From NCBI GenBank assembly GCA_963665845.2, contig OY762492.1, forward strand, positions 1,664,001 through 1,728,000: 64,000 nucleotides of DNA, read 5' to 3'. Positions 10,390-29,409 of the stretch are shown in pieces. The notes under the pieces are model-generated. The model saw only the letters and a list, made by a program, of their open reading frames with translations, was not told where the DNA came from and ran no database searches. The DNA is from Candidatus Poribacteria bacterium. Its GTDB lineage: Bacteria; Poribacteria; WGA-4E; GCA-2687025. The translations under genes were made by a program, and so were the position numbers. Positions within the stretch are counted from its first letter, which is position 1, and every line of letters begins with the position of its first letter.

Positions 10390-10926
10390 ATGAGCGAACG
10401 AAGCGGAACGAAACGAAAACAGCATCGAGACCCCTGGCACGAACTGCGCGCCGCGCTGATCCAGGCGCAGGCGCAGCTGGACGCCGAGCATGAATGGCGG
10501 GAAGGATGGGCGGATCTACTCAACGGCGCGTTGGAGGCGGTTGACAGGTTCGAGGCGCGGCAAAAAGACATACGCCGCCTCAACCCCATCGCGGAGCGGC
10601 TGGCGGTGGAGGAATGCCGCGATGTCCGGCTAGAGCTCGCATACGCCTTGAACGAGGCGCTGGATCGATTGAGAGCCTTGACCAAATTTCGGAGCGAAAT
10701 GCGCCGTCATGCGCTCGCTTTAGAATCGTCGGGCAAAGAAAAAAACGGGTTTGCGGCGGCGCTTCTCCGCGTCAGCCGCTCGCTGGAAGCGGCGACGATT
10801 GAAGATGCCTACAAGGTTGTTGATGATATTCAGAGGGAGAATTCGCTCCAAGCCGCCCGCTATCTGGGGACCCAAATCAAAACGGGCGGGCGGACTTTCA
10901 CACGGGATGAAATGAATGAGCGTTGA
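10390..10926 (+). CDS. Putative antitoxin with long helical N-terminal domain (copy 1)
   Basis: C-terminus IKTGGRTFTRDEMNER resembles PIN-associated antitoxin tails; overlaps the PIN start; three paralogs in the window. Confidence 0.7.
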   Translation: MSERSGTKRKQHRDPWHELRAALIQAQAQLDAEHEWREGWADLLNGALEAVDRFEARQKDIRRLNPIAERLAVEECRDVRLELAYALNEALDRLRALTKFRSEMRRHALALESSGKEKNGFAAALLRVSRSLEAATIEDAYKVVDDIQRENSLQAARYLGTQIKTGGRTFTRDEMNER

Positions 10927-11359
10927 CCATTTTTTGGACTCGAACATCGTCATCTACTACTATGACGATCAAAGTCCCAGAAAGAAAGCAAAAGCGAGGC
11001 GCATGGTGAACAGCGCGCTCGATAATGAAAACGGCTGCGTCAGCTTCCAGGTCGTTCAAGAAACAATGTACGTCATCAGGAAAAAGCTACGGGTGGACGA
11101 TAAGGACGCCGAATTCATGCTGAACAACATACTGCTGCAGCTTTGGGAAGCGAATCCCGTGTGGGAAACCGACCCGACGCCGGAAATGTACCAACGCGCC
11201 TTCGATCTCCATAAACGGCGCGGAATCGCCAACTTCTACGACTGCGTCATCGCCGTAAACGCTCTGGACGCCGGATGCGCCACGATCTACACAGAAGACG
11301 CAGGTCTGCTACACGCCCAGCGGGTTGAGGATGTGGACATCGTCAACCCGTTCAATTAA
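10916..11359 (+). CDS. PIN-domain (VapC-like) toxin
   Basis: FLDSNIVIY, QE, FYDCVI, IYTED PIN acidic motifs. Confidence 0.9.
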   Translation: MSVDHFLDSNIVIYYYDDQSPRKKAKARRMVNSALDNENGCVSFQVVQETMYVIRKKLRVDDKDAEFMLNNILLQLWEANPVWETDPTPEMYQRAFDLHKRRGIANFYDCVIAVNALDAGCATIYTEDAGLLHAQRVEDVDIVNPFN

Positions 11360-11394
11360 AATAGAGACTGAACTCAAAAAACGGAGAGCGGGGC

Positions 11395-11931
11395 ATGGCT
11401 GAACGAAGCGGAACGGAACGAAAACAGCATCGAGACCCCTGGAACGAACTGCGCGCCGCGCTGATCCAGGCGCAGGCGCAGCTGGACGCCGAGCATGAAT
11501 GGCGGGAAGGATGGGCGGAGCTACTCAACGGCGCGTTGGAGGCGGTCGACAGGCTCGAGGCGCGGCAAAAAGACATACGCCGCCTCAACCCCATCGCGGA
11601 GCGGCTGGCGGTGGAGGAATGCCGCGATGTCCGGCTAGAGCTTGGATACGCCCTGAACGAGGCGCTGGATCGATTGAGAGCCTTGACCAAATTTCGGAGC
11701 GAAATGCGCCGTCATGCCATAGCTCTAGAATCGTCGGGCGGAGAAAAAAACGGGTTTGCGGCGGCGCTGCTGCGCGTCAGTCGGTCGCTGGAAGCGGCGA
11801 AGATGGAAGACGCCTACAAGGTTGTTAGCGAAATTCGGAAGGAGAATTCGCTCCAGAGCCTTCGGTATCTGGAGACCCGAATCAAAACGGGCGGACGCAC
11901 TTTCACACGGGATGAAATGAATGAGCGTTGA
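11395..11931 (+). CDS. Putative antitoxin with helical N-terminal domain (copy 2)
   Basis: Near-identical paralog of 10390-10926. Confidence 0.7.
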   Translation: MAERSGTERKQHRDPWNELRAALIQAQAQLDAEHEWREGWAELLNGALEAVDRLEARQKDIRRLNPIAERLAVEECRDVRLELGYALNEALDRLRALTKFRSEMRRHAIALESSGGEKNGFAAALLRVSRSLEAAKMEDAYKVVSEIRKENSLQSLRYLETRIKTGGRTFTRDEMNER

Positions 11932-12126
11932 CCATTTTTTGGACTCCAACCCTTTCAATTCCGCCGTCATTCCCGCTTCTCCTCGTCATTCCCGCTTCTC
12001 CTCGTCATTCCCGCGTAAGCGGGAATCTTAAAGCAACGCAGCCGCCGCGCGCGGCGGAAACCCCCCTGCCCCCCTTTTCAAGGGGGGAGTCTGAAGGATG
12101 TTGACATCGTCAACCCGTTCAACTAA
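11921..12126 (+). pseudogene. Internally deleted PIN toxin; the middle is replaced by REP-like repeats
   Basis: Starts MSVDHFLDSN (11921-11950) and ends DVDIVNPFN* (about 12097-12126), as in the intact PIN genes. Confidence 0.8.
11965..12028. repeat. REP/dRS3-like palindrome family A (GTCATTCCCGCnnAAGCGGGAATC). Other copies near 25710, 35435, 38300, 41465, 44567, 45990, 49822, 49965, 50075, 50161, 53277, 56606, 62959
   Basis: ATTCCCGC-N4-GCGGGAAT hairpin repeated more than 12 times, mostly intergenic. Confidence 0.88.
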
Positions 12127-12164
12127 GATAGACCCTGAACTCAAAACGAAGACGGAGAACGAGC

Positions 12165-15100
12165 ATGGCAAAAAAAGCCCGAACGCCCAAAACGGTCGAA
12201 CACACCAAGCACGAGGACGCCAAACGCAAAAACAACCCCACCGCCGAATTCCAAAACCTGGTCTCTGACGAGATCAAGCGGCCCGTGCCTGTCCATATCA
12301 AACGCCCCAACCCCGACCTGGACCCGCAGCTGGTCTGGCACGGAAAAGACGCAAGCAGTCTAGACGAAATGGTCGTCAACGCGCCATCGCTTTACATCCA
12401 AGAAAAAATACAGCCCAAAGCGATCATCGACGGCCTGATGCGCCTCGCCGAGACGAACGCCCCCGACGAAGACCAAGGCGCCCTCTTCGCCGACTTCAAC
12501 GGCGTCCCCGAAAACGCCCAAACCGAGTTCTATCAGCACGACGCAAAATGGTCAAACCGAATGATACTCGGCGACAGCCTGCATGTCATGGCGTCGCTCG
12601 CCGAACGGGAAAACCTGCGCGGACAGGTCCAGTGCGTCTATATCGACCCGCCCTACGGCATCAAGTTCAACTCCAACTTCCAATGGTCAACGCAAACGCG
12701 CGACGTCAAAGACGGCAACGCGGCGCATATCACCCGCGAACCCGAACAGGTGAAAGCGTTCCGCGACACATGGGAAAACGGCGTCCACTCTTACCTCGGA
12801 TACCTGCGCGACAGAATCACCGCCGCCAGAGAGCTTCTGAACGAAACAGGCTCATGCTTCGTTCAGATCGGAGACGAAAACGTTCACCGCGTCCGCGCCA
12901 TCATGGATGAGGTGTTCGGACCTGAAAATTATATTTCATTGATTACATTTACAAAAACATCACCACTTGGCACCAAGCTTATAGCGAATCGCTGCGATTA
13001 CATTGTTTGGTATGCGCGCGATAAAGAAATCGTAAAATATCGTCCTCTTTTTGTTTCAAAAAATGTAGGACGGGGTACCGCATATTCCCACATTGAATTT
13101 CCTGATGGAAGTAAGCGTAGACTATCTTCCAATGACTCGAATCTGCCTAAAAATATAGATTATTTTGTATTAGGAAATTTATTGTCTACAGGATTTACTA
13201 AAACATGCTACTATGACTTTGACTTCGAAGGGCGGACTGTGCCTCAAGGTAGGTATAGCTGGAAAACCACTAAGAACGGCATGGAGCGGCTAATTCGCAT
13301 GGGCAGAGTATATGGTCAAGGATTAAGGCCTGGATACGTACAAAAATTTTCAGACTTTCCTGTCCAAACACTAGATCATTTATGGAACGACACAGGAGGA
13401 GCTCAAAATCGAAGATATGTTGTTGAAACAACCTCCAAGGTAATTCAGCGCTGCATCCTCATGACGACGGACCCAGGCGACCTTGTCCTGGACCCGACCT
13501 GCGGCTCTGGGACGACGGCGTACGTCGCTGAGCAGTGGGGCAGGCGCTGGATCGTTATCGACACGTCGCGCGTCGCGCTGGCTCTGGCGCGTATGCGTCT
13601 CATGGGGGCGCGTTATCCGTATTATCTGCTGTCCGACACGCCTGAAGGTCAACAGAAGGAGGCGGATCTGGAGCGGCGCGCCGTCTCGGAGGCGCCGACC
13701 TACGGCATGATACGGCAGGGGTTCGTCTATGAGCGCGTCCCGCACATCACGCTGAAGGCGATTGCGAACAACCGCGAGATCGACGAGATATGGGAGCGTC
13801 ATGAGGAGCGTTTGCGTCCGCTTCGAGAGGAGCTGTCGTCCGCCGCCGGTTTGGCGGAGCCGCTGGAGGAGTGGGAGGTTCCGCGCGAACTCCCTGACGG
13901 TTGGCATTCGGCGTCGGAGCCGCTGCTGTCCCGCTTTTGGAGGGATCGCGCCGCGCGTCAGAAGGAGATCGACGCGTCCATCGCCGCGGCGGCGGAATAC
14001 GAGCAGCTGTTCGACAAGCCGTTTGAGGACAAGAGGAAGGTTCGGGTCGCGGGTCCGTTCACGGTGGACAGCTTGTCGCCGGTGCGCTCCGTGCCGGTCG
14101 ATTCGAACGGCGATCCGCGTTTGAAGGAGCAGGAAGCGGCGGAAACGAAAGACTTTGCCGAGACGATTTTGGAGGCGCTGCGGGCGTCCGGCGTTCAGCA
14201 GACCGACAAGGCGGACCGCATCAAGTTTGAGTCGCTGGAGCCGTTCGGCGGCAAGTTTATCGCGGCGGAGGGCGTTTATACGGAGGGCGATGAGAAGAAG
14301 ACGGCGGGGGTGTATATCGGGCCGGAGTATAACGCAGTGTCGGACATCGAATTGACGATGGCGGCAAAGGAGGCGGCCGCCGCCATGCATGACGTCCTGA
14401 TTGCATGCGGTTTCAGCTTCGATCCTCAAGCCGCCAAGCGCCTGAATAGAGGGAGGATGCGGATACTTCATGCGCGCATGAACGCCGATCTGCATATGGG
14501 CGCGGATTTGAAGAATACGGGCATCGGAAACCTGTTCATCATCTTCGGCGAGCCGGACATTACAGTGGGCAGTGAAAAGTGGATCGTGGACAGCGAAGGG
14601 AAATGGATCGCGCCTTATGACATCTTTGCGCTCGTATCGGGACTTGATCGTATGGAAGAAGTCAATGGACTTCGCCGTGAAGATTTACACGCTTACGCGC
14701 GGCTTTCCCGCCGACGAGAGATTTGGGATGATCTCGCAGATGCGGCGGGCGTCGTCGTCGATACCGGCGAACATCGCGGAGGGTCAGGCGCGTCGCACAA
14801 CGGGGGAATTTCTACATTCGCTTGGCATTGCGCGGGGGTCTTTAGCGGAGGTCGAGACCTTTCTGATATTGTCGGCGCGATTGGAGATGATCGGCTCCGA
14901 GAGTTTAAAGCGCTTGTTGACCGACTGCGAGGAGATCAGCAAAATGCTTCACGGGCTGATGAAGTCTCTGGCATCCCGCCGATAGACTCTGTCCACTATC
15001 CACTGACGACTGCCCACTTCCACCAGGTAAGGATAAACGGCGTGGACATCTTTGATCCAAGAAAAGGCGAGCCGAAGAGCCATGACATAGACGGCATCGC

Positions 15101-15347
15101 CTGCTGGTTCATCGACACCGATTACAACGGCGAAAGCTTTTTTGTGCGCCATGCCTATTTCATCGGCGCGGACGACCCGTATAAGCAGTTGAAGACGACC
15201 TTGAAAGCGGAGATCAACCAAGAGGCATGGGAGTCCCTGCGCGGCAACCTCTCGCGCCCGTTTCCGCGCCCGTCTTCGGGGATGATCGCCGTCAAGGTCA
15301 TCAACCGCTTCGGCGATGAGGCGATGCGCGAATTCCAGATTGAATAG
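12165..15347 (+). CDS. Type III R-M Mod subunit (site-specific DNA methyltransferase) with an in-frame insertion of about 150 aa
   Basis: DPPY motif IV, DPTCGSGTT motif I, C-terminal IAVKVINRFGDE; paired with the upstream Res. Confidence 0.9.
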   Translation: MAKKARTPKTVEHTKHEDAKRKNNPTAEFQNLVSDEIKRPVPVHIKRPNPDLDPQLVWHGKDASSLDEMVVNAPSLYIQEKIQPKAIIDGLMRLAETNAPDEDQGALFADFNGVPENAQTEFYQHDAKWSNRMILGDSLHVMASLAERENLRGQVQCVYIDPPYGIKFNSNFQWSTQTRDVKDGNAAHITREPEQVKAFRDTWENGVHSYLGYLRDRITAARELLNETGSCFVQIGDENVHRVRAIMDEVFGPENYISLITFTKTSPLGTKLIANRCDYIVWYARDKEIVKYRPLFVSKNVGRGTAYSHIEFPDGSKRRLSSNDSNLPKNIDYFVLGNLLSTGFTKTCYYDFDFEGRTVPQGRYSWKTTKNGMERLIRMGRVYGQGLRPGYVQKFSDFPVQTLDHLWNDTGGAQNRRYVVETTSKVIQRCILMTTDPGDLVLDPTCGSGTTAYVAEQWGRRWIVIDTSRVALALARMRLMGARYPYYLLSDTPEGQQKEADLERRAVSEAPTYGMIRQGFVYERVPHITLKAIANNREIDEIWERHEERLRPLREELSSAAGLAEPLEEWEVPRELPDGWHSASEPLLSRFWRDRAARQKEIDASIAAAAEYEQLFDKPFEDKRKVRVAGPFTVDSLSPVRSVPVDSNGDPRLKEQEAAETKDFAETILEALRASGVQQTDKADRIKFESLEPFGGKFIAAEGVYTEGDEKKTAGVYIGPEYNAVSDIELTMAAKEAAAAMHDVLIACGFSFDPQAAKRLNRGRMRILHARMNADLHMGADLKNTGIGNLFIIFGEPDITVGSEKWIVDSEGKWIAPYDIFALVSGLDRMEEVNGLRREDLHAYARLSRRREIWDDLADAAGVVVDTGEHRGGSGASHNGGISTFAWHCAGVFSGGRDLSDIVGAIGDDRLREFKALVDRLRGDQQNASRADEVSGIPPIDSVHYPLTTAHFHQVRINGVDIFDPRKGEPKSHDIDGIACWFIDTDYNGESFFVRHAYFIGADDPYKQLKTTLKAEINQEAWESLRGNLSRPFPRPSSGMIAVKVINRFGDEAMREFQIE
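14564..15018. mobile_element. Inverted-repeat-bounded insertion carrying a four-helix-bundle gene
   Basis: 14564-14593 AGTGGGCAGTGAAAAGTGGATCGTGGACAG and 14989-15018 CTGTCCACTATCCACTGACGACTGCCCACT are 25/30 reverse complements with 7-nt periodicity. Confidence 0.7.
14617..14985 (+). CDS. Four helix bundle protein (23S rRNA IVS protein / Avd-like fold), nested in the +1 frame of mod
   Basis: SYRDLIVWKKSM...FPADERFGMISQMRRASSSIPANIAEG...FLHSLGIARGSLAEVET, the family signature. Confidence 0.9.
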   Translation: MTSLRSYRDLIVWKKSMDFAVKIYTLTRGFPADERFGMISQMRRASSSIPANIAEGQARRTTGEFLHSLGIARGSLAEVETFLILSARLEMIGSESLKRLLTDCEEISKMLHGLMKSLASRR

Positions 15348-15457: not shown

Positions 15458-16003
15458 ATGACCGAACGAAGCGGAACGGAACGAAAACAGCATCGAGACC
15501 CTTGGAACGAACTGCGCGCCGCTCTCATCCAGGCGCAGGCGCAGCTGGCGCAGTTGGACGTCGAGCCTGAACGGCGGGAGAACTGGACTCCTCTTCTCGA
15601 CGGCGCATTGGAGGCGGTCAACAGGTTCAAGGCGCGTCAAAAAGAGATACCCGGTCTCCGCCGCGCCGCGGAGCGTCTGGCGGTGGAGGAATGCCGCGAC
15701 GCTCGGAGGGCGTTCGGACGCGCCCTGAGCGAGTCGCTGGATCAGTTGAGAACCCTGACCAAGTTTCGAGGCGAGATGCGCCGTCATGCCCTCGCTCTAG
15801 AATCGTCGGGCGGAGAAAAAAACGGGTTTGCGGCGGCGCTTCTCCGCGTCAGTCGGTCGCTGGAAGCGGCGGCGCTTGAGGATGACTACGATACTCTTCT
15901 GAAAGTTCGGGGGGAGAATTCGGTTCAAATCGGCCGCTATCTGCAGACCCGAATCAAAACGGGCGGACGTACCTTCACACGGGATGAAATGAATGAGCGT
16001 TGA
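15458..16003 (+). CDS. Putative antitoxin with helical N-terminal domain (copy 3, more diverged)
   Basis: Paralog of 10390 and 11395 with the same GGRTFTRDEMNER tail. Confidence 0.7.
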   Translation: MTERSGTERKQHRDPWNELRAALIQAQAQLAQLDVEPERRENWTPLLDGALEAVNRFKARQKEIPGLRRAAERLAVEECRDARRAFGRALSESLDQLRTLTKFRGEMRRHALALESSGGEKNGFAAALLRVSRSLEAAALEDDYDTLLKVRGENSVQIGRYLQTRIKTGGRTFTRDEMNER

Positions 16004-16436
16004 TCATTTTTTGGACTCCAACATCGTCATTTACTACTATGACGATCGAAGTCCGGAAAAGAAAGCAAAAGCGACGCTTCTGGTTGACAGCGCGCTTAAA
16101 AATCAAAACGGCTGCATCAGCTACCAGGTCGTTCAAGAGACAATGTATGTCGTCAGGAAAAAGCTGCGGGTGGACGATAATGACGCCGAAACCATGCTGA
16201 ATGACAGACTATTGCCGCTTTGGGAAGCGAATCCCGCGCGGGAGATCGACCCGACGCCGGAAATGTACCTACGCGCTTTTGATCTCCAGAAACGGCGCGG
16301 AATCGCCAATTTCTATGATTGCGTCATCGCCGTGAACGCTCTCGACGCTGGATGCTCAACGCTCTATACAGAAGACGCGGGTCTGCTCCATGCCCAGCGG
16401 GTTGAGGATGTGGACATCGTCAACCCGTTCATCTAA
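15993..16436 (+). CDS. PIN-domain (VapC-like) toxin, paralog of 10916-11359
   Basis: FLDSN, FYD, YTED motifs. Confidence 0.9.
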   Translation: MSVDHFLDSNIVIYYYDDRSPEKKAKATLLVDSALKNQNGCISYQVVQETMYVVRKKLRVDDNDAETMLNDRLLPLWEANPAREIDPTPEMYLRAFDLQKRRGIANFYDCVIAVNALDAGCSTLYTEDAGLLHAQRVEDVDIVNPFI

Positions 16437-16517: not shown

Positions 16518-17033
16518 ATGGCGGCTGTTGCATCCAAGAACGCGGAATTTTATCTCAAACGCGGTCGGCTCTATGCCGACAAGGGCAAACTAGAGCGCGC
16601 CGCTGCGGAATACGCCAAGGCGGTAGAGCTGCAGCCCGACGACCCGACAGCGTATCGTTTCCGCGCAGAAGCGTACCGCGCAGCGGGCGATCTTTGCCGC
16701 GCCCTTGCCGACATCAACAAGGCGGTTGATCTGGACCTTTACGACGCGCAGGCGTTCATGCTCCGCGGGCTGATCTATAAAGACAGGGGCGAGATGGCCG
16801 ATTACGAAGAGGAGTTTCGCGTCGCCGTCCTGCTTGACGGCGAGCTGGTGAACCATGAAACGCATGGGGCGGAATTTGCGCGTATCCTGAAAGCTGACGA
16901 GGAAGAGGAGGCGGAGTGGGACGAACTCGCCAGCCGGCCGGAAGCGAAGGCGCTGTTTGAGGAATGGGAAGCGGAAGCGATGGAGGAGTATCGAGCGGGG
17001 AAAACGAAGCCTTTGGATCCTGAGGATCTATAA
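16518..17033 (+). CDS. TPR protein with C-terminal acidic antitoxin-like tail
   Basis: About three TPRs, then EWDELASR...EEYRAGKTKPLDPEDL; the stop overlaps the toxin start (TAATG). Confidence 0.75.
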   Translation: MAAVASKNAEFYLKRGRLYADKGKLERAAAEYAKAVELQPDDPTAYRFRAEAYRAAGDLCRALADINKAVDLDLYDAQAFMLRGLIYKDRGEMADYEEEFRVAVLLDGELVNHETHGAEFARILKADEEEEAEWDELASRPEAKALFEEWEAEAMEEYRAGKTKPLDPEDL

Positions 17034-17314
17034 TGCGCTCGCGCACATCTTCGCGGTTTCGAAGGCAATTCAGGCGTCTTCCAAAAGAAGTCCGGCAAAA
17101 GGCAAAAGCGGCATACCGCCTATTTGAAACGAACCCCCGCCATCCCGCCTTACAATTTAAAAAATTACGCGGCAGCGACCGCAGATATTCGGTTCGTTTC
17201 TATAAAAAATACCGCGCTCTCGCAAGAAGAACAGATGAGGGCGACCTCGAATGGTATTCTATTGGATCGCATGCGACATACGACCAGGATATAAATAATA
17301 AGAAGTTGGGATAA
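17033..17314 (+). CDS. RelE/ParE-like toxin
   Basis: Basic 93 aa; FRRQFRRLP...NPRHPALQFKKL...YSVR...YRAL...WYSIGSHATYD. Confidence 0.85.
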   Translation: MRSRTSSRFRRQFRRLPKEVRQKAKAAYRLFETNPRHPALQFKKLRGSDRRYSVRFYKKYRALARRTDEGDLEWYSIGSHATYDQDINNKKLG

Positions 17315-17377: not shown

Positions 17378-20300
17378 ATGCGCAAACCCGTCATCGACAA
17401 CCAGGACAAGAGCGATACGCTTCTCGACCGCCTCAAGCCCCGTCTCAAGGGCGCGGACGCCTTGCGCGTCGTCTCCGCCTATTTCTCCATCTACGGCTTC
17501 GGCGCGCTCGCCGACCAGCTCCGCCCCCTCAAAGAGACCCGCTTCCTCTACGGCGACCCAGGCTCCATCGACGACATCGACCCCGGCGAAAAAACCGACC
17601 GCGCCTTCTACCTGCACGATGAACGGCTCGCGCCGACCGAAGCGCTGCGCCAAAAAGCGCTCGCCGAACAGTGCGAGAAATGGGTGCGGCAGCGCCGTAC
17701 CAAAATACGCGCCATCGCCCGCTCCAATTTCCTCCACGGCAAAATGTGGCATATCGACAAAAAAGACGCGCCGTTCGCCGTCGTCGGAAGCTCCAACTTC
17801 ACCCAGCGCGGACTCGGCGCCGGCGCGGCGCCGAACATTGAGATCAACCTCGCCGCGGACGACCCGCAAACATGCAAAGAACTGCGCGACTGGTTCGACG
17901 ACCTATGGAACGACGAGACGAAGGTCATAGATGTCAAACTGGAGGTTCTGAAAGCGCTGCGCCGCATCGGGCGCGAATGGGGCGCCGAAAGCGTCTATTT
18001 CAAAACGCTCTATGCGCTGTTCAAAGACGACTGGCAGGCGATCCAAGACAGCGACGCGGAACTCAAAAGCCTCAAACTGACCGACGCGCAGATATGGAAC
18101 GCGCTGTACCAGTTTCAAAAAGACGGCGTCCACAGCATTCTCAAAAGCCTAAATAGCCACAACGGATGCCTGCTCGCCGACAGCGTCGGCCTCGGAAAAA
18201 CGTACGCCGCCCTCGCCGTCATCAAGTATCACGAACTGCGCAATGAGCGCGTCCTCGTGCTCTGTCCGCGCAAACTGCGGGAGCAGTGGGCGTTGTATCT
18301 CAGCGCGGCGGGGCAAGAAGGCAACCCGTTTCTAAAAGACAGGTTCAACTACTCGCTGCTCTCCCATACCGACCTCTCCCGCGACAAAGGAATCGTCGGA
18401 AACATCGATCTCGCCAACTTCAACTGGAGCTCCTTCGATCTGGTCGTCATCGACGAATCGCACAACTTCCGCAACCCGGACGGGAAGCGTTACCAAAAAC
18501 TGATCAAAGAGATCATCAAGGAAAGCGTCAACACAAAAGTGCTGATGCTCTCCGCGACCCCCGTCAACACCTCCCTCATCGACCTGCGCAACCAGATCTA
18601 TCTCATGACCGAAGGGCGCGACGACGCCTTCGCGCCAAGCCTCAACATACACAGCCTCAAACGGACCCTCCGAAACGCCCAAGAGCAGTTCAACGCATGG
18701 AGTCCTGAAGACGGCAAACAGGGGCTTCTGGAGACGCTCGGCGCCGACTTCCAAAGCATTCTCGCCGCCGTCACCGTCTCCCGATCTAGAAAGCAGATCG
18801 AGACCTTTTACAGAGCCGACATGGAACGAGTCGGCGCCTTCCCAACACGCGACGACCCTGTCAACCTCTACCCCCCCACCGACACAGAAAAACAGCTCTC
18901 CTATGAGAAGCTGGCGGAGCAGATTGAGCAGTTCCAGCTCTCCATCTACACCCCCACCAACTATCTCATCAGCCTAGCGAGGCGGGCGGAACTGGACGCG
19001 GAAAAGAAACGGCGCAACTTCAACCAGCAAGACCGAGAACGGTTCCTGATCGGAATGATACGGGTCAACTTCCTCAAACGGCTCGAAAGCGCCCCCCACT
19101 CGCTCAAGTTGACGCTGCAGCGGACGGTCAAAAAAATCAGCGATCTCATCGACAAGATCGACCGTTACAGCGGGCGGCCGTCCAGCGACGCGGAGCTGAA
19201 CGAAGAGACGGCGCCTTACGAAACCGATGTGGAGGAAGACGACGATCTCATCGTCAACAAAGGCAAAAATCCGTTCAAGCTAAGCGAACTGGATGTCCAA
19301 ACATGGCGCGAAGACCTTGTCAAAGACAGGGACATCCTGAACGAAGCGCTGCGTCAGGTGGCGGCGGTCGCGCCCGAACGAGACGGCAAACTGGATGAGA
19401 TCAAGCGGCTGATACGCCGGCGCGCCGAGTACCCGTCCCTCGACCAAAACGGCAAGGAATGCCGCAAGCTGATTGTCTACACCACCTTCAAAGACACGGC
19501 GCTGTATCTCTATCGCCAGCTGGAGCCGCTGACGAAGGAGCTGGGGTTGAAGATGGCGATGGTCGCGGGATCGGAAACGCATACGGAGCATGGCGACAAC
19601 AATTTCCACGCCATACTCAACAACTTCGCCCCCTTCGGACGCAAGGGCGAAGGCGCCGCCGCCGACCCCGACATCGACCTGCTCATCGCCACCGACTGCG
19701 TCTCGGAAGGCATGAACCTCCAAGACTGCGACCGCATCGTCAACTACGACATCCACTGGAACCCGGTGCGCATCATTCAGCGGTTCGGGCGCATCGACCG
19801 CATCGGCAGCAAAAGCCGCTCCATAAAGATGACGAACTTTTGGCCGACCGAGGACATGGAGGTATACCTGAAACTGGAAAGCCGCGTCCGGTCGCGCATG
19901 GCGCTGGCGGACATCGCCGCCACAGGCGAAGACGACCCGCTCGACATCCAAGAGGAGCTGCAACTCGCCGAAAAAGAGCTGACCCTCCGATACAAGCAGC
20001 TGCGCAAAATGAAAGAGGAAGGCGCCTACATAGAGGAGCTGGACGACGCGCCCGCCATGAGCGACTTCTCCTTCGCGCGCTTCGTCGGGCAACTGAACGA
20101 ATACCTGCGCCAACGGCAATACGAGCTGGAGAACATGCCGGACGGCGCCTACGCGGTCGTCAAGCGGGACGAGGGCGCGGAGCCGGGCATCCTCTTCTTC
20201 CTGCGCCAAACAAACGCCGACCCTGAAAACCCAGACAAATCCGCAAGCCCCGTCGCCCCGCATTACGCCGTCTATGTCCAAGACGACGGAACGATACGCC

Positions 20301-20635
20301 ACGGATGCGCCAACGCCCAGCAGATACTCGACATCTTTGAAGCCGCCGCCGTCGGCAAAACGGAACCGATACAGGACATGTGCGACCTGTTCAACATGGA
20401 AACGGAAAACGGACAGAAAATGGCGCGGTACGACGATCTGATCCAAGCCGCGGCAGACGACATCAAAACGGCGTACGCCGCCGCCATTGAAAAAAATATA
20501 GCGGGCGGCGACCGCAACTTCATGCTGCCCGTCTACGAGAACGCGCCGCGAGACCTGAACGACTTTACACTGGTCACATGGCTTGTTATACTGGACGCCG
20601 ATCATGAACGTTATGAAACGGGGTACGGCGTATGA
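17378..20635 (+). CDS. PLD-nuclease domain + SNF2-like helicase
   Basis: LHGK...VVGSSNFT (PLD), LADSVGLGKT, DESHNFR, SAT, SEGMNLQ, QRFGRIDR. Confidence 0.88.
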   Translation: MRKPVIDNQDKSDTLLDRLKPRLKGADALRVVSAYFSIYGFGALADQLRPLKETRFLYGDPGSIDDIDPGEKTDRAFYLHDERLAPTEALRQKALAEQCEKWVRQRRTKIRAIARSNFLHGKMWHIDKKDAPFAVVGSSNFTQRGLGAGAAPNIEINLAADDPQTCKELRDWFDDLWNDETKVIDVKLEVLKALRRIGREWGAESVYFKTLYALFKDDWQAIQDSDAELKSLKLTDAQIWNALYQFQKDGVHSILKSLNSHNGCLLADSVGLGKTYAALAVIKYHELRNERVLVLCPRKLREQWALYLSAAGQEGNPFLKDRFNYSLLSHTDLSRDKGIVGNIDLANFNWSSFDLVVIDESHNFRNPDGKRYQKLIKEIIKESVNTKVLMLSATPVNTSLIDLRNQIYLMTEGRDDAFAPSLNIHSLKRTLRNAQEQFNAWSPEDGKQGLLETLGADFQSILAAVTVSRSRKQIETFYRADMERVGAFPTRDDPVNLYPPTDTEKQLSYEKLAEQIEQFQLSIYTPTNYLISLARRAELDAEKKRRNFNQQDRERFLIGMIRVNFLKRLESAPHSLKLTLQRTVKKISDLIDKIDRYSGRPSSDAELNEETAPYETDVEEDDDLIVNKGKNPFKLSELDVQTWREDLVKDRDILNEALRQVAAVAPERDGKLDEIKRLIRRRAEYPSLDQNGKECRKLIVYTTFKDTALYLYRQLEPLTKELGLKMAMVAGSETHTEHGDNNFHAILNNFAPFGRKGEGAAADPDIDLLIATDCVSEGMNLQDCDRIVNYDIHWNPVRIIQRFGRIDRIGSKSRSIKMTNFWPTEDMEVYLKLESRVRSRMALADIAATGEDDPLDIQEELQLAEKELTLRYKQLRKMKEEGAYIEELDDAPAMSDFSFARFVGQLNEYLRQRQYELENMPDGAYAVVKRDEGAEPGILFFLRQTNADPENPDKSASPVAPHYAVYVQDDGTIRHGCANAQQILDIFEAAAVGKTEPIQDMCDLFNMETENGQKMARYDDLIQAAADDIKTAYAAAIEKNIAGGDRNFMLPVYENAPRDLNDFTLVTWLVILDADHERYETGYGV

Positions 20636-23600
20636 TGCGAGCCAGAATCGAGGCGGGACTGGAAAAGGCGGCGGAGGCGGACAACTTCCACGACGGAGCC
20701 AACCAGCTGCTCAAGACGCTCGGATATGAAAGCGGGCGGCGTGGGCTGACAACCTTCAAACCCAAAAAGTTTGTCGAAGAATTTCCAAATCCGCGCGGCG
20801 CCGGAACGCAAACCGAATTGAGATTTCTGAAGGAGGTACAATCGACCCGCATCCTGTTTCAAATGACCGACGACGAGGTGAACCAAGCCGCCCAGAGACG
20901 AACAGGCGAGATGACGCTATTTGAAAGCGGCGGGTCAGAGATGGACGAGTCGGTCGATAGAAGCTTCTTTTTTGCGTCGGTGGAGCTGAACGGCGAGTCG
21001 TATTCGCGCGGAAAATACGCCGAATTCACCCGCGAACTGAATAAACGGCTCCCCATCGCCACCGTCGCCCTCTTTAGAACGCAAAGCCGCCGCATCTCCA
21101 TCGCGCTAGCGGATCGCCGGGAACATAAAGCCGAGAAAGGAAGAGCCGTACTCGGGCGCGTCTCCCTCCTGCGCGAAATCGACCCCGGCAACATGCGCTC
21201 CGACGCCAACATACTGGAAGACCTGACCCTAAACAATCGAATCGAATGGATGCAAGACCTGGCGAAAAACGCCGAAAAGCGCAACTTCGACGGGCTGCGC
21301 AAAGCATGGCTCGACACGCTCGACACCGAATCGCTCAACAAGCGGTTCTATAAAGAACTGAAAGCATGGTTCGACCGCGTCGTTGAGGAGGCGACGTTCC
21401 CGACGACGAAAACGCAAACGCAGCAGGATCATGCTATCCGCCTCATCACCCGCATGCTGTTCATCTGGTTCATGAAAGAAAAGGGGCTGGTGAACAAGAA
21501 CCTGTTTAATCCAAAGCAGGTCGCGCCGCTGCTGCGGAATTGGAACATCGTCAGCGGGGATTCCTACTACCGAGCCGTCCTCCAAAATCTGTTCTTTGCG
21601 ACGCTCAACACGCCCATTGATCTGCGCGACTTCAGCAGGTTAGACAATTCGACGCGTCACATCCCGAATCCGTACAGGTATGCAGATCTGATGACCGACC
21701 CCGTCGAGCTAAGGGATCTCTTTAAGAAAACGCCCTTTATTAACGGCGGCCTCTTCGAGTGTCTTGACGATCTTGAAGGCGTCAATCCAGGCGGAAAACA
21801 GGTCGACTGCTTCACCGACGATACGGATCAACGCAAAGAGATGTCCGTTCCCGACGATACGGATCAACGCAAAGAGATGTCCGTACCCAACAGCCTCTTC
21901 TTCGACAAAAAGAACGGGCTGTTCAATCTGTTTAAAGGGTATAAGTTCACCGTCGAAGAGAACACGCCGATAGAGCAGGAGGTGGCGCTGGACCCCGAAC
22001 TGTTGGGAAACGTGTTTGAAAACCTGCTGGCGGAGATGAACCCTGAAACGCGCGACACCGCCCGTAAAATGACCGGCTCCTACTACACCCCGCGCGACGT
22101 CGTGAACTACATGACGAAAGAAGCGCTGGCGGCGGCGCTCGCCCAAAAGGTTCAGTCCGACCCCAAAAACGCCGATGACTGGGATGAAAACCTGAACGTA
22201 CTTCTAGACGACGAGAAGGCATGGGACGAAGCGGGAGATCTGTTTTCAGACGGGGAAAAGCGGCGGCTGACGGAAGGCATCGCCGACCTGAAAATACTGG
22301 ATCCTGCTGTCGGGTCCGGCGCCTTTCCGATGGCGGCGCTCCTGAAATTGACGATGGCGCTGCGACGCATAGATCCAAAGAACGAATTATGGGAGGATGT
22401 TCTGCTGAAACGCGCACGCGATCAAGCGGAGAAGGTCATCGGCCAGGAGCAAGATAACGAGCGGTACCATAAACAGATGGGGGAGATCAAGAAGACCTTT
22501 GACAGATTACGAGATTCAGATTACGGGCGGAAGCTGTTTCTCATTCAAAACAACATCTTCGGCGTCGACATTCAGCGCATCGCATGCCAGATCGCCAAGC
22601 TGCGCTTCTTCATCACCCTCGCCATCGAACAGGAATCGAACAAGGACGAGGATAATTATGGCATCAAACCGCTGCCAAACTTGGAGACCCGCTTTGTCGC
22701 CGCCGACGCGCTCCTGTCGCTCCATCCGAAATCCGATAAACCTCAGAAACTGAGATCCGAACTGACCGATCAACTTAAACAGGAAATACATGAGAACCGC
22801 CGGCGGTATTTTCTAGCCAACGAGCACGACGAAAAAAATATCCTCAAAGGCGAAAATGAGATTCTGCGGGGAAAGCTGTCGAAACAGCTGAAAACGATGA
22901 AATGGACGGACATAGCGGCGGAGCGAATCGCCAACTGGGATTCGTTCAGCCAAACAGACGACCCCGCCGACTGGTTCGACCCAGAGTATATGTTCGGCGT
23001 CCGATACGGGTTCGACGTCGTCATCGGCAACCCGCCCTATGTCCAGCTGCAGAAAAACGGCGGAGAGCTGGGGGAAAAATACCAAAACACAGGCAAAGAC
23101 CGAAAAACACGTTTTGAGACCTTCGCCCGCACAGGCGACATCTACTGCCTCTTTTATGAGCAGGCGCTGAACCTGGCGGCGGAGGGCGGATGCGCCTGCC
23201 TCATCACCTCCAATAAATGGATGCGCTCCGACTACGGCAAAAAGCTGCGCGACCTGTTCGTTGAAAAGATAAGCCCCGCCCTGCTGATCGATATGGGTCC
23301 GGGCGTTTTTGAGGCGTCGGTCGATACGAACATTCTGCTATTGAGGAAAGCCGCCCCCCTTCCCAACGCTGTCATAAACAGCGTTGAGATGAAGCCCGAC
23401 TTCAGCCGGCAGCAGGGCGGCGTCGGCGAGTATGTCCGGAAGAACGGCGTTGAGATGCCGGTTCCGGACGCTGGATATCCATGGACGATCGCCTCCGCCG
23501 TTGAGCTGAACATTCTGAAGAAGATGCGCGATGTCGGGACGCCGCTAAAGGAATGGGATGTAAACATCAATCGCGGCGTGACCATCGGATGCAATGACGC

Positions 23601-24303
23601 TTTCATCATTGACGCCGACACGCGCAGTCGTTTAGCGTTTGAAGATCCTAGATCAGACGAGATACTGAAGCAGATTCTGCGCGGACGCGACATACAAAGA
23701 TGGGTTCCAGAATGGGCAGGGCTGTGGTTGATAGATTCTCATAATGGCTTTGGCGATACGCCGCCCATCGATATGGACGACTACCCAGCTGTCAAAGCAT
23801 GGCTAGACCATTTCTACCCTAGACTTGAGAAACGTCAAGATAAAGGGAAGACTCCTTACAACCTCCGCAGCTGCGCTTACCATGAGGCTTTTTCCGAAGA
23901 GAAGCTGATGTGGAAAGATATTGCCACAAGCGGATATTTTACCTACGTCAACGTACCCATGTTTTGCAACAATACCAGTTATATTATGACCGGAACTTCG
24001 CTTAAATACCTATGCGCCGTCTTGAATTCTCGATTGGTAACGTGGTTTATGAGAAAAGCCGCTGCTGGGCTGGGACAGAAAGCGATTCGCTGGATCGCAA
24101 CGTATGTTAATCGCCTGCCCATCCCGCGTCCGCCGACGCCGGAAGTGGAGTCCGCGCTGGTTCTTTTAGTGGACGCAATCTTGTCGAAGAAGGCGTCCGA
24201 TCCAGGGGCGGATGTGTCGCGGTTGGAGGAGAAGATTGACGGCATGGTGTATGATCTTTACGGCTTGACGGAGGAGGAGCGCGCTGCCGTTTCCGGCGGC
24301 TAG
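20632..24303 (+). CDS. Type IIG/Eco57I-like N6-adenine DNA methyltransferase with C-terminal TRD
   Basis: GSYYTP, LDPAVGSGAF, IGNPPY, TaqI-C-like tail VYDLYGLTEEE. Confidence 0.88.
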   Translation: MMRARIEAGLEKAAEADNFHDGANQLLKTLGYESGRRGLTTFKPKKFVEEFPNPRGAGTQTELRFLKEVQSTRILFQMTDDEVNQAAQRRTGEMTLFESGGSEMDESVDRSFFFASVELNGESYSRGKYAEFTRELNKRLPIATVALFRTQSRRISIALADRREHKAEKGRAVLGRVSLLREIDPGNMRSDANILEDLTLNNRIEWMQDLAKNAEKRNFDGLRKAWLDTLDTESLNKRFYKELKAWFDRVVEEATFPTTKTQTQQDHAIRLITRMLFIWFMKEKGLVNKNLFNPKQVAPLLRNWNIVSGDSYYRAVLQNLFFATLNTPIDLRDFSRLDNSTRHIPNPYRYADLMTDPVELRDLFKKTPFINGGLFECLDDLEGVNPGGKQVDCFTDDTDQRKEMSVPDDTDQRKEMSVPNSLFFDKKNGLFNLFKGYKFTVEENTPIEQEVALDPELLGNVFENLLAEMNPETRDTARKMTGSYYTPRDVVNYMTKEALAAALAQKVQSDPKNADDWDENLNVLLDDEKAWDEAGDLFSDGEKRRLTEGIADLKILDPAVGSGAFPMAALLKLTMALRRIDPKNELWEDVLLKRARDQAEKVIGQEQDNERYHKQMGEIKKTFDRLRDSDYGRKLFLIQNNIFGVDIQRIACQIAKLRFFITLAIEQESNKDEDNYGIKPLPNLETRFVAADALLSLHPKSDKPQKLRSELTDQLKQEIHENRRRYFLANEHDEKNILKGENEILRGKLSKQLKTMKWTDIAAERIANWDSFSQTDDPADWFDPEYMFGVRYGFDVVIGNPPYVQLQKNGGELGEKYQNTGKDRKTRFETFARTGDIYCLFYEQALNLAAEGGCACLITSNKWMRSDYGKKLRDLFVEKISPALLIDMGPGVFEASVDTNILLLRKAAPLPNAVINSVEMKPDFSRQQGGVGEYVRKNGVEMPVPDAGYPWTIASAVELNILKKMRDVGTPLKEWDVNINRGVTIGCNDAFIIDADTRSRLAFEDPRSDEILKQILRGRDIQRWVPEWAGLWLIDSHNGFGDTPPIDMDDYPAVKAWLDHFYPRLEKRQDKGKTPYNLRSCAYHEAFSEEKLMWKDIATSGYFTYVNVPMFCNNTSYIMTGTSLKYLCAVLNSRLVTWFMRKAAAGLGQKAIRWIATYVNRLPIPRPPTPEVESALVLLVDAILSKKASDPGADVSRLEEKIDGMVYDLYGLTEEERAAVSGG
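21815..21886 (+). repeat. In-frame 36-bp tandem duplication (DDTDQRKEMSVP x2)
   Basis: Two direct copies differing at one base. Confidence 0.9.
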
Positions 24304-24337: not shown

Positions 24338-25601
24338 GGGTACTACACGTTTGACTAGATAAGCGGATTGCGCTACACTAAAGGGAGATTGAGAAAGGAA
24401 ATTCCAATGCAGTCTACCAGTATCTACGAGATTTTTGAAAAATATCCCGATGAAAAAAGCGCCGCCCGATTCTTTGAAGAAAGCCGATGGACGAATGGCA
24501 TCTGCTGCCCCCGATGCGATTCCAAAAACATCGCCCGAGTGAAAAACGCCAAACCGATGCCGCTCAGATGCCGAACATGCCGCAAGTATTTCAGCGTCCG
24601 CACGGGAACAATCATGGAGAAAAGCAAAATCCCCCTCCATATGTGGCTTCTGGCGCTCTATTTGTTCCTGACGTTTAAGAAGGGCGTATCGAGCGTTACG
24701 ATGGGTAAGCTACTGGGCATAAGGCAGGACTCCGCATGGTCCCTAGGCCACCGCATCCGAGCCTCGATGGTAAGCGACGACGAAATGCTGAGCGGAACCG
24801 TGGAGATAGACGAGGTCTACGTCGGCGGCAAAGAGGGTAGTAAGCATCGCAGAAAAAAGCTGGGCGTCGGAAGCGGAACCCGCGGCAAGCAGACCGTGAT
24901 CGGCATGCGTCAAAGAAACGGCGAAATCCGCGCGTTTCTGCTGGACAATATGAAGATAAAAACGGTTCATGGCGCTGTAAGGGCGAATGTGGCGCCTGGG
25001 TCAACCGTTTATACCGACGCTCTCCCGACCTACAAGGGCATGGAGGAATACGCGCATGCCGCTGTCTCGCATCAGAAAGGCGAGTATGTTCGCGGCGATG
25101 TTCACACCAACAGCATCGAGTCGTTCTGGGCCGTCCTGAAACGCGGGTACCGCGGCGTTTACCATTACATGTCGTTTAAACACCTGGGTTTATACGTCAA
25201 AGAATTCGTCTACCGGTTCAATGTTGGAAACGACAACCGCATCGAAACGCTTGCCAAGATTGTTCCGCGCATGGTCGGTAAACGCCTTACTTACGCGGAT
25301 CTGGTGAAATAAAGCGGTTGCAGTTCTAAAACCTGTGAGGCAGGATACATGCAGGCATCGTGCGTATGGTTGCAGCGGTAGATTGTGCCGAATGCGCCAA
25401 AACAAGCGCGAAAGCGGAAATAACATCGGCAGTTCTAGGAGATGAAATGAAATGGGCTGGCAGTGTTGCGTCCAACGCAACGCCGCCAGCCCGAGATGAG
25501 TCGTAAGCAACGAATTACGGCAAGAAAAAACGTAAAAAAAAACGCAACGCTGAAAACAATGGCGGGGTATATGCCTCTGGCAAATCAAACGTGTAGTTCC
25601 C
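24338..25601 (+). mobile_element. Complete IS1595-family element
   Basis: 17-bp TIRs GGGTACTACACGTTTGA / TCAAACGTGTAGTTCCC (1 mismatch); 8-bp TSD CTTGAAAA at 24330-24337 and 25602-25609. Confidence 0.93.
24407..25312 (+). CDS. IS1595-family transposase
   Basis: Zn ribbon CPRC..CRTC, VEIDE, VYTD, HTNSIESFW. Confidence 0.95.
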   Translation: MQSTSIYEIFEKYPDEKSAARFFEESRWTNGICCPRCDSKNIARVKNAKPMPLRCRTCRKYFSVRTGTIMEKSKIPLHMWLLALYLFLTFKKGVSSVTMGKLLGIRQDSAWSLGHRIRASMVSDDEMLSGTVEIDEVYVGGKEGSKHRRKKLGVGSGTRGKQTVIGMRQRNGEIRAFLLDNMKIKTVHGAVRANVAPGSTVYTDALPTYKGMEEYAHAAVSHQKGEYVRGDVHTNSIESFWAVLKRGYRGVYHYMSFKHLGLYVKEFVYRFNVGNDNRIETLAKIVPRMVGKRLTYADLVK

Positions 25602-26274: not shown

Positions 26275-26280
26275 ACAAGA

Positions 26281-27566: not shown

Positions 27567-27569
27567 CCC

Positions 27570-27980
27570 ATGCAGTATCTGATCGATACGGATTGGGCGA
27601 TCCACTATTTAAGGGGCGCGCCGGCTGTGATTGAGCGTGTGAACGAGCTTCTGGACGACGGCATCGGAATCAGCGTCATCGCGCTTGTTGAACTTTACAG
27701 GGGCGTTCCTGCCGCACGCGATCCCCAGAGCGCTAAGCAGCATATTGAGCAGTTTGTTGCGCGCCTTGAGGTCGTCCCGCTAGACAAGCCCGCTTGCGAG
27801 ATATTTGCGAGTGAGTCCGTGAGGTTAAAATCCGCCAACAATCTCATAGACGATTATGACCTGTTGATCGGCGCGACCGCATTGAGCCGCGGCTTGACGC
27901 TGTTGACAAACAACCGCCGACACTTTAAGCGGATAGAGGGCTTGAGTATCGTTTCGGTCGATAAGCCTACCTCCTCTTGA
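27570..27980 (+). CDS. vapC: VapC PIN toxin
   Basis: YLIDTD, ELYRG, DYDLLIGATAL, LLTNNRRHFKRI. Confidence 0.92.
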   Translation: MQYLIDTDWAIHYLRGAPAVIERVNELLDDGIGISVIALVELYRGVPAARDPQSAKQHIEQFVARLEVVPLDKPACEIFASESVRLKSANNLIDDYDLLIGATALSRGLTLLTNNRRHFKRIEGLSIVSVDKPTSS

Positions 27981-28069
27981 ACGGCGCCGCCCCTCCCGCT
28001 TCTTGACAACGCATAGCCGCGTCCGGCACACTTTAGGCAGCGTCGGCAAGGTTGAATGGAGGGAGTACC

Positions 28070-28594
28070 ATGGCGGTGTCAGCATCCAAGGACGCAGAAT
28101 TCTATCTGAAACGCGGTCGGCTCTACGCCGACAAGGGCAAACTGGCGCGCGCCGCCGCAGAATACGCCAAGGCGATAAAGCTGCTACCCGACGACCCGAA
28201 GGCGTATCGTCTCCGCGCAGAGGCGTATCGGGAAAAGGGCGACCTTGACCGCGCCCTTGACGACATGAACAAGGCGGCGGAGCTCAACATCTACGATGCG
28301 CAGACATTTTTACGAAGAGGACTGCTTCACAAGGAAATGGGAAGGACAGCGGACTATGAGGAAGATTTTCGAATCGCCGTTTTGCTCAACCGCGAACTGG
28401 TCAACCATGAAACGCATGGGGCGGAGTTTGCGCGTATCCTGAAAGCTGACGAGGAAGAGGAGGCGAAATGGGAAGAGACGTTCAAGCTGCCCGAATCGCA
28501 AGCCTTCTTGAAAGAGATGGCGGAAGAGGCGTTGGAGGCGCACCGTCAGGGCAAAACGAAGCCGCTTGAGTTAGAGGATTTTGACAACGCCTAG
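28070..28594 (+). CDS. TPR-antitoxin paralog of 16518-17033, with no toxin downstream
   Basis: Same architecture; tail EAHRQGKTKPLELEDF. Confidence 0.78.
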   Translation: MAVSASKDAEFYLKRGRLYADKGKLARAAAEYAKAIKLLPDDPKAYRLRAEAYREKGDLDRALDDMNKAAELNIYDAQTFLRRGLLHKEMGRTADYEEDFRIAVLLNRELVNHETHGAEFARILKADEEEEAKWEETFKLPESQAFLKEMAEEALEAHRQGKTKPLELEDFDNA

Positions 28595-28647
28595 GCGCGT
28601 CTGGCATACTTTCGGCAGCGTCGGCAAGGTTGAATGGAGAGAGTACC

Positions 28648-29337
28648 ATGGCGGTGTCGGCATCCAAGGACGCAGAATTCTATCTGAAACGCGGTCGGCT
28701 CTACGCCGACAAGGGCAAACTGGAGCGCGCCCTCGCCGATTTTGACAAGGCGATAGAGCTGCAGCCTAATTATCCGATGGCATATATCTTCCGCGCCATG
28801 GTGTATCGGGAAATGGGCGACCTTGACAGCGGGATCGCCGACCTCGACAGGTCGATAGAGCTGCAGTCCGATGATCCGACGGCGTATATGAACAGAGCCG
28901 CCCTGTACCGCGCAAAGGGCGACCTTGCTACAGCCCTTGCCGACATGAACAAGGCGGCGGAGCTCAACATGGACATCCCGCAGATCTTATTGCGGCGGGG
29001 AGGGCTTTACGCTGAAATGGGCGATCTCGACAGCTCCATCGCGGACTACACCAAGGCGGTTGAGCTGCAGCCCGATTTTGCGGAGGCGTATATCCATCGC
29101 GCCGAGATCTATCGGGCAATGGGAAACCCTGAGCGCGCCAACGAAGACATGGCAAAAGTCGCGCTGCTGAATCCGCCCAACTACGCCCCGTCGATCCCGC
29201 TGCCCGATCCGTACGGCAAAAAGAAGAAAATGACCATGTCCGCCGCAGGAAGCTGGAAAGGTCTCATTGACGGCGAGAAGTTGATACGCGAAATCTACGA
29301 AGCGCGGAAAAACAGCCTTCGCGCGTATAAACCGTAG
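28648..29337 (+). CDS. Chimeric TPR-antitoxin (N-terminus of the 28070 type, remainder of the 26481 type)
   Basis: First ~25 aa match 28070; about 28744-29340 is near-identical to 26973-27569. Confidence 0.8.
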   Translation: MAVSASKDAEFYLKRGRLYADKGKLERALADFDKAIELQPNYPMAYIFRAMVYREMGDLDSGIADLDRSIELQSDDPTAYMNRAALYRAKGDLATALADMNKAAELNMDIPQILLRRGGLYAEMGDLDSSIADYTKAVELQPDFAEAYIHRAEIYRAMGNPERANEDMAKVALLNPPNYAPSIPLPDPYGKKKKMTMSAAGSWKGLIDGEKLIREIYEARKNSLRAYKP

Positions 29338-29340
29338 CCC

Positions 29341-29409
29341 ATGCGCTATCTGATCGATACGGAATATAGACAAGGCAAAACGAAGCCGCTTAAGTTAGAA
29401 GACCTGTAA
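29341..29409 (+). pseudogene. Fused relics: vapC 5' end (MRYLIDT) + antitoxin 3' end (QGKTKPLKLEDL*)
   Basis: Direct similarity to the 27570 start and the 28070/16518 ends. Confidence 0.75.

Follow-up and report, generated by a model that had tools for sequence, protein, structure and literature searches.

A 64,000-nucleotide stretch of a “Candidatus Poribacteria” genome (GenBank assembly GCA_963665845.2, contig OY762492.1, positions 1,664,001 to 1,728,000; here called the window) encodes type II toxin-antitoxin (TA) pairs in which the antitoxin forms the C-terminus of a larger carrier protein, such as an array of tetratricopeptide repeats (TPRs). These fusions represent a variant of type II TA systems that is lineage-wide, has been grafted repeatedly and has apparently not been described before. 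We propose, with a probability of about one half, that such pairs act as trip-wires in which an event at the carrier would free the toxin.

Seven fused antitoxin genes and four intact toxin genes are found in the window, all on the forward strand (positions are those of the window unless a genome locus is given). Each of the four intact toxins is preceded by a fused gene, with overlapping or abutting stop and start codons, and antitoxin and toxin form a two-gene operon with coupled translation in 4 of the 7 window cassettes and in 15 of 26 genome-wide. A sequence-only reading of this DNA had placed the seven genes and three kinds of antitoxin tail, and open reading frames (ORFs) and sequence bear this out. 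Pfam detected TPRs in the genes starting at 16518, 26481, 28070 and 28648, PIN domains in those at 10916, 15993 and 27570, and the ParE_like domain PF24732 in that at 17033, and the tails match the C-termini of stand-alone antitoxins of the same toxin families. The further claim that every toxin follows a fused gene holds for the four intact toxins, although three of the seven cassettes (A2, B2 and C2) lack a toxin.

Family A consists of a helical bundle with a ribbon-helix-helix (RHH)-type VapB C-terminal tail, followed by a PIN/VapC-type toxin. A1 (10390..10926; 178 aa) precedes the intact PIN1 (10916..11359; PF01850, E 1.7e-11), and A3 (15458..16003; 181 aa, 73% identical to A1) precedes the intact PIN3 (15993..16436; PF01850, E 8.8e-11), which is 84% identical to PIN1 with a ratio of nonsynonymous to synonymous substitution rates (dN/dS) of 0.24. 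A2 (11395..11931; 90% identical to A1) is an orphan: of the PIN gene recognised by sequence behind it (11921..12126), only 10 initial and 9 terminal codons survive, flanking 146 nt of palindromic repeats, and this junction is seen as a loose end in contigs of three sequencing runs. The acidic PIN residues D8, E49, D109 and D128 are invariant across three copies. In other taxa, the same PIN family has a partner of 72 to 78 aa at 14 of 14 loci; we take these partners to be RHH antitoxins from their sequence pattern, and they have no Pfam or NCBIfam match. One of them ends in 14 residues nearly identical to the family A tail, and the tail aligns with RHH antitoxins in a profile comparison (hhalign, E 8.7e-6 over 31 columns). 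Since the match is limited to the last 31 columns, the RHH head is gone from family A. In its place is a body predicted by AlphaFold2 (AF2) as a helical bundle (pLDDT 81), for which Foldseek gave no match at E ≤ 0.001 and the ESM Atlas no usable match; VIA returned only generic helical bundles, the best being a designed bundle (Z 12.5, rmsd 3.7, 146 aligned). A second family A array (G000:C1:3609022-3612252, G000 being this genome) retains three intact antitoxins, and all three of its PIN genes are frameshifted, two of them at the same A-run; the frameshifts are backed by short-read contigs. A degenerate PIN-like gene without the first catalytic-type Asp (G000:C1:3496055-3496585) follows the PIN gene of a cassette whose antitoxin is a 674-aa protein combining TPRs and family A modules.

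In family B, TPRs are joined to a complete small antitoxin. B1 (16518..17033) carries three TPRs fused to the entire 72-aa antitoxin of ParE-like toxins and is followed by an intact ParE-like toxin of RelE fold (17033..17314; PF24732, E 5.3e-10). B2 (28070..28594; 70% identical to B1) is an orphan directly followed by C2, with no toxin between. The end of B can be aligned with the partner over all 72 aa, the first helix of the partner coinciding with the last TPR helix, and no Pfam DNA-binding domain was found in B or in its small relative. At 18 loci in other genera, the ParE-like toxin has the small partner in 16, a helical partner of about 160 aa in one and no evident partner in one; none has TPRs. 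Among longer database proteins that contain the B antitoxin, 30 of 30 carry TPRs, and the named homologues of the fused antitoxins belong to “Ca. Poribacteria.” Residues R61, W74, G78 and H80 of the toxin are invariant in 24 relatives; the roles of these residues, as of those in the PIN toxins, are presumed from family knowledge. Three other genomes (G004, G005 and G014) have ParE-like toxins after all-helical partners of about 160 aa with an acidic B-like tail and no TPR. Homology of these partners to the family A bundle, suspected by eye, was not supported (hhalign probability 0.3).

Modelling of B1 with its toxin, a check proposed by the sequence-only reading, predicts that the pair binds mainly through the tail. 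The complex scored 0.89 and the best of three controls 0.00, by a mark that is reached by 116 of 157 solved pairs and 2 of 215 mismatched pairs (approximate counts, with user-supplied alignments). Runs shared at least 96% of contacts, with partner pLDDT of at least 92. The confident interface comprises mainly residues 130 to 171, together with residues 74 and 75 and 94 to 106, and includes the last TPR helix. No B1 residue before 74 is in this interface, which suggests that TPR1 and TPR2 are free in the predicted complex. The score may partly reflect model memory of similar complexes, the nearest solved structure to the toxin being RelE3 (3bpq), a weak match at E 0.0047.

Family C has a different tail and a distinct joint. 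C1 (26481..27566) comprises eight TPRs, a flexible Pro/Lys-rich linker and an AF2212-like (DUF104) antitoxin tail and precedes an intact VapC toxin (27570..27980; PF01850, E 9.6e-14) that resembles structures of tRNA(fMet)-specific VapC (E 1.3e-12). The AF2 model of C1 has TPR blocks with pLDDT of >90, a stretch mostly below 50 at residues 309 to 338, and a terminal helix. The C tail is shared with the small partners of related VapCs (five of five). Three of three such partners that were scanned carry the AF2212-like domain, and C1 is without it. The proposal that the DNA-binding domain had been replaced is thus upheld in A (RHH) and C (AF2212-like), but not in B or in the UPF0175 family found elsewhere in this genome. 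C2 (28648..29337) is an orphan chimera of a B-type N-terminus, C-type TPRs and a C tail identical to that of C1 at the protein level. Behind it lies a 22-codon deletion scar (29341..29409) in which the first 7 codons of VapC are joined to the last 15 codons of a B tail.

The layout of the 26.3- to 29.5-kb stretch is matched by contigs from three of four runs, including a piece across the B2/C2 junction, with no single run contig covering all of it. As similar fusions occur in other assemblies, the fused layout is not an assembly artefact. Most cassettes were thought to have their own TTGACA promoter element, and this motif indeed lies within 150 nt upstream of six of the seven window cassettes (e.g., at 15382 before A3 and 28003 before B2) and of 17 of the 26 fused genes genome-wide, compared to 139 of 2231 long ORFs, a rough background because that set includes shadow and operon-internal ORFs. 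Full −35/−10 matches of the sigma-70 type were found for A1 (10325..10354; 11 of 12 consensus positions), C1 (26412..26440; 10 of 12) and C2 (28581..28610; 10 of 12, with TG).

A search of related genomes for tail fusions next to toxins, also suggested beforehand, revealed a pattern much wider than the island. This genome (completeness 90%) has 26 fused antitoxin genes, comprising 7 of family A, 12 of B, 2 of C, 4 TPR-UPF0175 fusions (family D) and one MazE tail on a DUF4209 protein. All 15 intact TA toxins found in it (A, 3; B, 7; C, 1; D, 3; MazE, 1) follow a fused antitoxin. This count covers only the families searched, and the toxins match PIN, ParE_like, DUF3368 and PemK in Pfam; ParE_toxin, HicA, BrnT, HigB-like and PIN_3 were not found, and HipA, Fic, MNT-HEPN, GNAT and similar toxins lay outside the search. 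The related genome used for comparison (G001) has 11 B fusions, and PIN PF01850, A-type PIN and C-type VapC were not found in it. B fusions were not found in 149 other genomes of the class, in each of which at most 33 candidates were scored; two weak matches appeared, one with only TPRs in range.

Family D retains the full UPF0175 antitoxin, and its toxin is a DUF3368 PIN protein. A D locus of this genome lies at G000:C1:1300781-1310761, and the family is syntenic in several species. Among 41 genomes, D fusions occur in 13 of the 18 that are toxin positive, and the other 5 have plain forms only. UPF0175 is present in 107 of 121 genomes of the phylum, and about 70 of the matches listed lie in frames of at least 200 codons (hand count). 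Eight such frames, hand-picked across genera and mostly long, all encode 7 to 28 TPRs followed by an intact toxin; judged by sequence, three have a TIR-like head and one an FRG-like head, and Pfam confirmed such heads in P0046 and P0051. Among longer proteins with the UPF0175 antitoxin, 18 of 23 are TPR fusions. Outside the window, family D matches the PADLOC candidate system PDC-S70 (DUF3368/UPF0175; toxin E 1.6e-44, antitoxin E 4.1e-7), a candidate status that does not establish function. A motif matching the UPF0175 N-terminus closes some TPR and TIR-TPR proteins that stand alone (G000:C1:347741-348667, 1244204-1245316 and 2362999-2363394; L132 and L135), which may be truncated fusions or a landing site for fusion; in the two pairs tested, groove dN/dS was near 1 (0.98; confidence interval [CI], 0.58 to 1.48).

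MazE tails are attached to carriers of other kinds. In this genome, the C-terminal MazE tail sits on a DUF4209/PDC-S39 protein of 637 aa encoded ahead of MazF (G000:C1:2243337-2245597) and, in G028 and G019, on a PLD-SNF2 restriction-modification (R-M) helicase homologous to the product of window 17378-20635; both are candidate “guard” fusions. Of 15 MazF loci, 5 encode a plain MazE, and at 7 the partner shows no evident AbrB head; some of these partners are built from tandem copies of the MazE tail helix. A wider profile search, run against 1.84 billion representatives, was dominated by TPR proteins and is uninformative on other taxa. Among its 150 best matches, 7 span the TPR-plus-tail profile; of four candidates viewed, three belong to the TPR-plus-tail family and one (P0168) is a plain TPR protein. 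A metagenome scan gave six weak TPR loci.

The sequence-only reading had spoken of three unrelated families, and this does not stand: A and B are not independent, and C2 is a B/C chimera. The 674-aa paralog in this genome and proteins P0010 and P0011 have, in order, TPRs, the start of a B tail, the A bundle and the A tail. Read from architectures rather than from a tree, family A appears to be a derivative of B, and A1 a TPR-less derivative of a TPR-fused form. If A derives from B, at least three independent TPR grafts (B, C and D) are implied. Further events probably include later capture of the RHH tail and the non-TPR MazE grafts. TPR blocks have been exchanged between tails in C2, P0011 and P0023.

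Purifying selection is evident in the TPR fold as well as in the tails and toxins. Gene pairs of G000 and G001 were matched by similarity and neighbourhood, and the 8 of 11 that had >60% identity were pooled. Between the two genomes, dN/dS was 0.43 (0.36 to 0.50) for TPRs, 0.26 (0.18 to 0.35) for tails and 0.45 (0.37 to 0.57) for toxins (six pairs), compared to 0.10 and 0.07 for two housekeeping neighbours. TPR positions were divided into fold, groove and other surface positions, classes as generally assigned in TPRs. Fold positions had a dN/dS of 0.21 in fused TPRs (seven of seven pairs) and 0.19 in housekeeping-like TPRs (8 of 10 pairs), and the corresponding values were 0.54 (0.35 to 0.79) and 0.23 (0.10 to 0.38) for the groove, which evolves about twice as fast in the fused proteins, and 0.38 (0.27 to 0.51) and 0.28 for other surface positions. 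Five syntenic long D genes showed the same ordering (groove, 0.30; other, 0.23; fold, 0.14). Groove values for D4 (1.88) and C1/C2 (0.88) were set aside, given that the repeats compared may be misaligned in register or of chimeric origin. The fold is kept while the groove drifts or diversifies, which falls short of proof of positive selection.

We propose that the antitoxin tail holds an RNase toxin in check, binding between tail and toxin being predicted for B1 only, and that the carrier would be bound, cleaved or lost during phage infection, freeing the toxin and causing the cell to abort. Toxicity, neutralisation, trigger, release and phage protection are all inferred. In family B, where a contact between the toxin and the last TPR helix is predicted, coupling is likely to be rigid; in family C, it would likely run through a flexible, possibly cleavable linker. 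Maintenance of the toxins, loss of autoregulation in several families and a folded carrier with a variable surface together suggest that a specific event probably frees the toxin. A broader interpretation may be advanced tentatively: the TPR-antitoxin repertoire could be a form of modular innate immunity, a two-gene analogue of Avs/NLR proteins that is free of an NTPase and whose sensors and warheads are reshuffled by recombination. Antitoxins would then have been grafted repeatedly onto restriction proteins and onto interchangeable TPR arrays of 2 to 28 repeats, a TIR or FRG domain heading some of them, and a ligand-binding or guard event would free the RNase toxin.

Several observations weigh against the trip-wire. 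TPR number is highly plastic: six of seven A copies have none, three D copies have about 1.5, and numbers elsewhere reach 28. The toxin is lost or broken for 11 of the 26 fused genes in this genome, the three PIN frameshifts being confirmed by short-read contigs. Carriers are not always TPR proteins, as in the DUF4209 protein and the R-M helicase, and 7 of 15 MazF partners have neither an evident AbrB head nor a large carrier. Many B copies lie among housekeeping genes, outside defence islands. Two or three TPRs are small beside known sensors, and the trigger ligand of the TPRs is only hypothetical. Finally, groove dN/dS is below 1 with an interval overlapping that of other positions, so that an arms race accounts for it no better than relaxed constraint does.

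Most of these observations are well explained by passive carriers, the main rival account and a plausible, if less probable, one. Deletions in TA-rich islands would join antitoxin tails in frame to a common upstream gene, which in Poribacteria is often a TPR gene. The carrier would supply a promoter, a ribosome site and a stable fold, and the toxin would police the integrity of the carrier, as misfolding or truncation would be lethal; the outcome would be a constitutive, stabilised TA system, selfish or domesticated, without sensing. Variation in TPR number, toxin loss, carriers other than TPRs and B copies at housekeeping sites all follow readily, as do the loss of TPRs in family A and their collapse in short D copies. 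The existence of tail-only MazE forms, the fresh deletion scars in the window and the position of junctions where TPR ends resemble antitoxin starts point the same way, and the constrained fold positions, with a groove indistinguishable from other surface positions, are also consistent with it. However, a stable, unregulated antitoxin should permit toxin decay, whereas the toxins keep invariant catalytic-type residues and have dN/dS of 0.13 to 0.61 between species. Nor does a passive carrier readily account for fusion of all five families in a single genome when plain forms persist in relatives, or for arrays of 7 to 28 TPRs with TIR or FRG heads that persist in many species, some of them syntenic.

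It is unlikely that the fusion serves as an addiction tag, with the tail making unlosable a costly defence gene such as that for a TIR-TPR, FRG-TPR or DUF4209 protein or an R-M helicase, or as a host-state sensor, with the TPRs binding a host chaperone or protease adaptor so that proteotoxic or symbiotic stress would release the toxin, as in chaperone addiction. Tails are indeed fused to PADLOC-type defence proteins (PDC-S39, HKD+SNF2 and TIR), and the toxin-antitoxin-chaperone (TAC) systems are a precedent for chaperone dependence conferred on a TA pair by an appended element (PMC5105189). Yet a fixed host ligand predicts a conserved groove, as in housekeeping TPRs (0.23 rather than the 0.54 observed), no dedicated chaperone gene lies within the window cassettes, and the B and C carriers of the window have no effector head to protect.

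Separate synthesis of the tails from internal starts had been named by the sequence-only reading as a refuting outcome. No strong conserved internal start was found in the fused genes by Shine-Dalgarno (SD) scoring with a generic anti-SD motif rather than that of this genome's 16S rRNA, and none explains the tails. In family A, an in-frame ATG lies 75 aa before the C-terminus, inside a predicted helix, with a modest SD of about −5.8 kcal/mol in five of seven copies, which falls between the 10th and 25th percentiles of ordinary internal ATGs (−6.6 and −5.0). M93 of B1 aligns with the first Met of the small antitoxin but is absent from the other 11 B genes of this genome, and the internal Mets of C score −1.7 and −2.0, with no SD. 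With the upstream bodies under purifying selection, it is very improbable that the tails are made separately or, despite the many broken toxins, that the cassettes are decaying debris.

The surrounding region of the window is a defence island in which R-M genes and an IS1595 element are interleaved with the seven antitoxin-like genes. A type III restriction subunit (7320..10328; Pfam ResIII, PADLOC REase_III) precedes cassette A1, and a type III methyltransferase (12165..15347; PADLOC MTase_III) separates the A2 and A3 cassettes. Downstream of the B1 cassette are a PLD/HKD-SNF2 helicase (17378..20635; Pfam and PADLOC), a type IIG R-M enzyme (20632..24303; PADLOC) and an IS1595-family transposase (24368..25312; Pfam). 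The type III methyltransferase gene contains, in another frame, an ORF for a 23S_rRNA_IVP/Avd-like four-helix protein (14572-14985; Pfam, E 1.4e-39), and its own frame continues uninterrupted across this ORF. A 130-aa ORF (25882-26274) behind a strong TTGACA/TATACT promoter candidate is single copy in the genome and has no Pfam or NCBIfam match.

Type II antitoxins are typically small, with an N-terminal DNA-binding domain, although this is not obligatory. The fused systems share toxin families and homologous, putatively neutralising tails with canonical type II systems (RHH-VapBC, AF2212/COG2880-PIN, UPF0175/COG2886-DUF3368/COG2405, PF24732 with its 72-aa partner, and MazEF), as well as the operon order of antitoxin then toxin and the coupled stop and start codons. 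They differ in that the antitoxins have 155 to 1346 aa rather than 70 to 100, with TPR or other carriers at the N-terminus, and in that A, C and the MazE fusions no longer have the DNA-binding domain. Kaur et al. (2021) reportedly described single-gene TPR-GreA/B-C-PIN (TGP) conflict proteins, with TPR and PIN in one chain. TGP proteins thus also bring TPRs and a PIN RNase together in predicted defence, whereas here the TPRs sit on the antitoxin. CapRel is likewise said to be one chain with a toxSAS toxin.

Parallels also exist in the control of the toxin. In CapRel-SJ46 (PMC11578894), the antitoxin part doubles as the sensor of a phage protein, whose engagement frees the toxin; in the fused systems, a sensor role is a candidate. 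The CapRel sensor is the antitoxin domain itself; the systems described here have a repeat module that is separate and swappable, toxins of RNase type, and antitoxin and toxin in different genes. TAC systems (HigBAC/CmdTAC, 10.1101/2024.02.24.581848; Mycobacterium tuberculosis TAC, PMC5105189) are similar in that a transferable module places a standard TA pair under protein-binding control, with sensor and warhead modular in both. The addition in TAC is a destabilising C-terminal ChAD rather than a folded N-terminal TPR array; the C-termini of the fused antitoxins end like those of stand-alone antitoxins, with no ChAD element, and no SecB-like chaperone ORF, the third gene of TAC, was found in or next to the window cassettes. 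TPR repeats are proven sensors of phage proteins in Avs proteins of the STAND class (PMC13581612), and the coupling of TPR-like repeats to a toxic output resembles the system proposed here. No STAND NTPase domain was found in the fused antitoxins scanned and, unlike Avs, they have no NTPase or oligomerisation module; their output would consist in freeing a toxin encoded separately. The fused system is not a member of the CapRel, TAC or Avs classes. No description of TPR-fused antitoxins was found in the literature searched, which did not extend to paper supplements that may list such architectures, and “TPR” does not occur in the main texts of a 2009 paper by Makarova (PMC2701414) or of a 2017 classification of PIN domains (PMC5499597).

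How type II antitoxins come to release their toxins at the proper time is a long-standing question that has been answered for few systems, e.g., CapRel and TAC. Within a single phylum, a scaffold for protein recognition has repeatedly been joined to at least four unrelated antitoxin families, and plain and fused versions, as well as versions with swapped sensors, exist naturally side by side, making the question testable with small genes. If the TPRs gate release, such fusions would offer a generally applicable way of building programmable toxin switches and would serve the defence of a lineage that is uncultured and known chiefly from sponges. Were the TPRs only carriers, some “eukaryote-like” TPR genes would belong to TA modules and not to host interaction.

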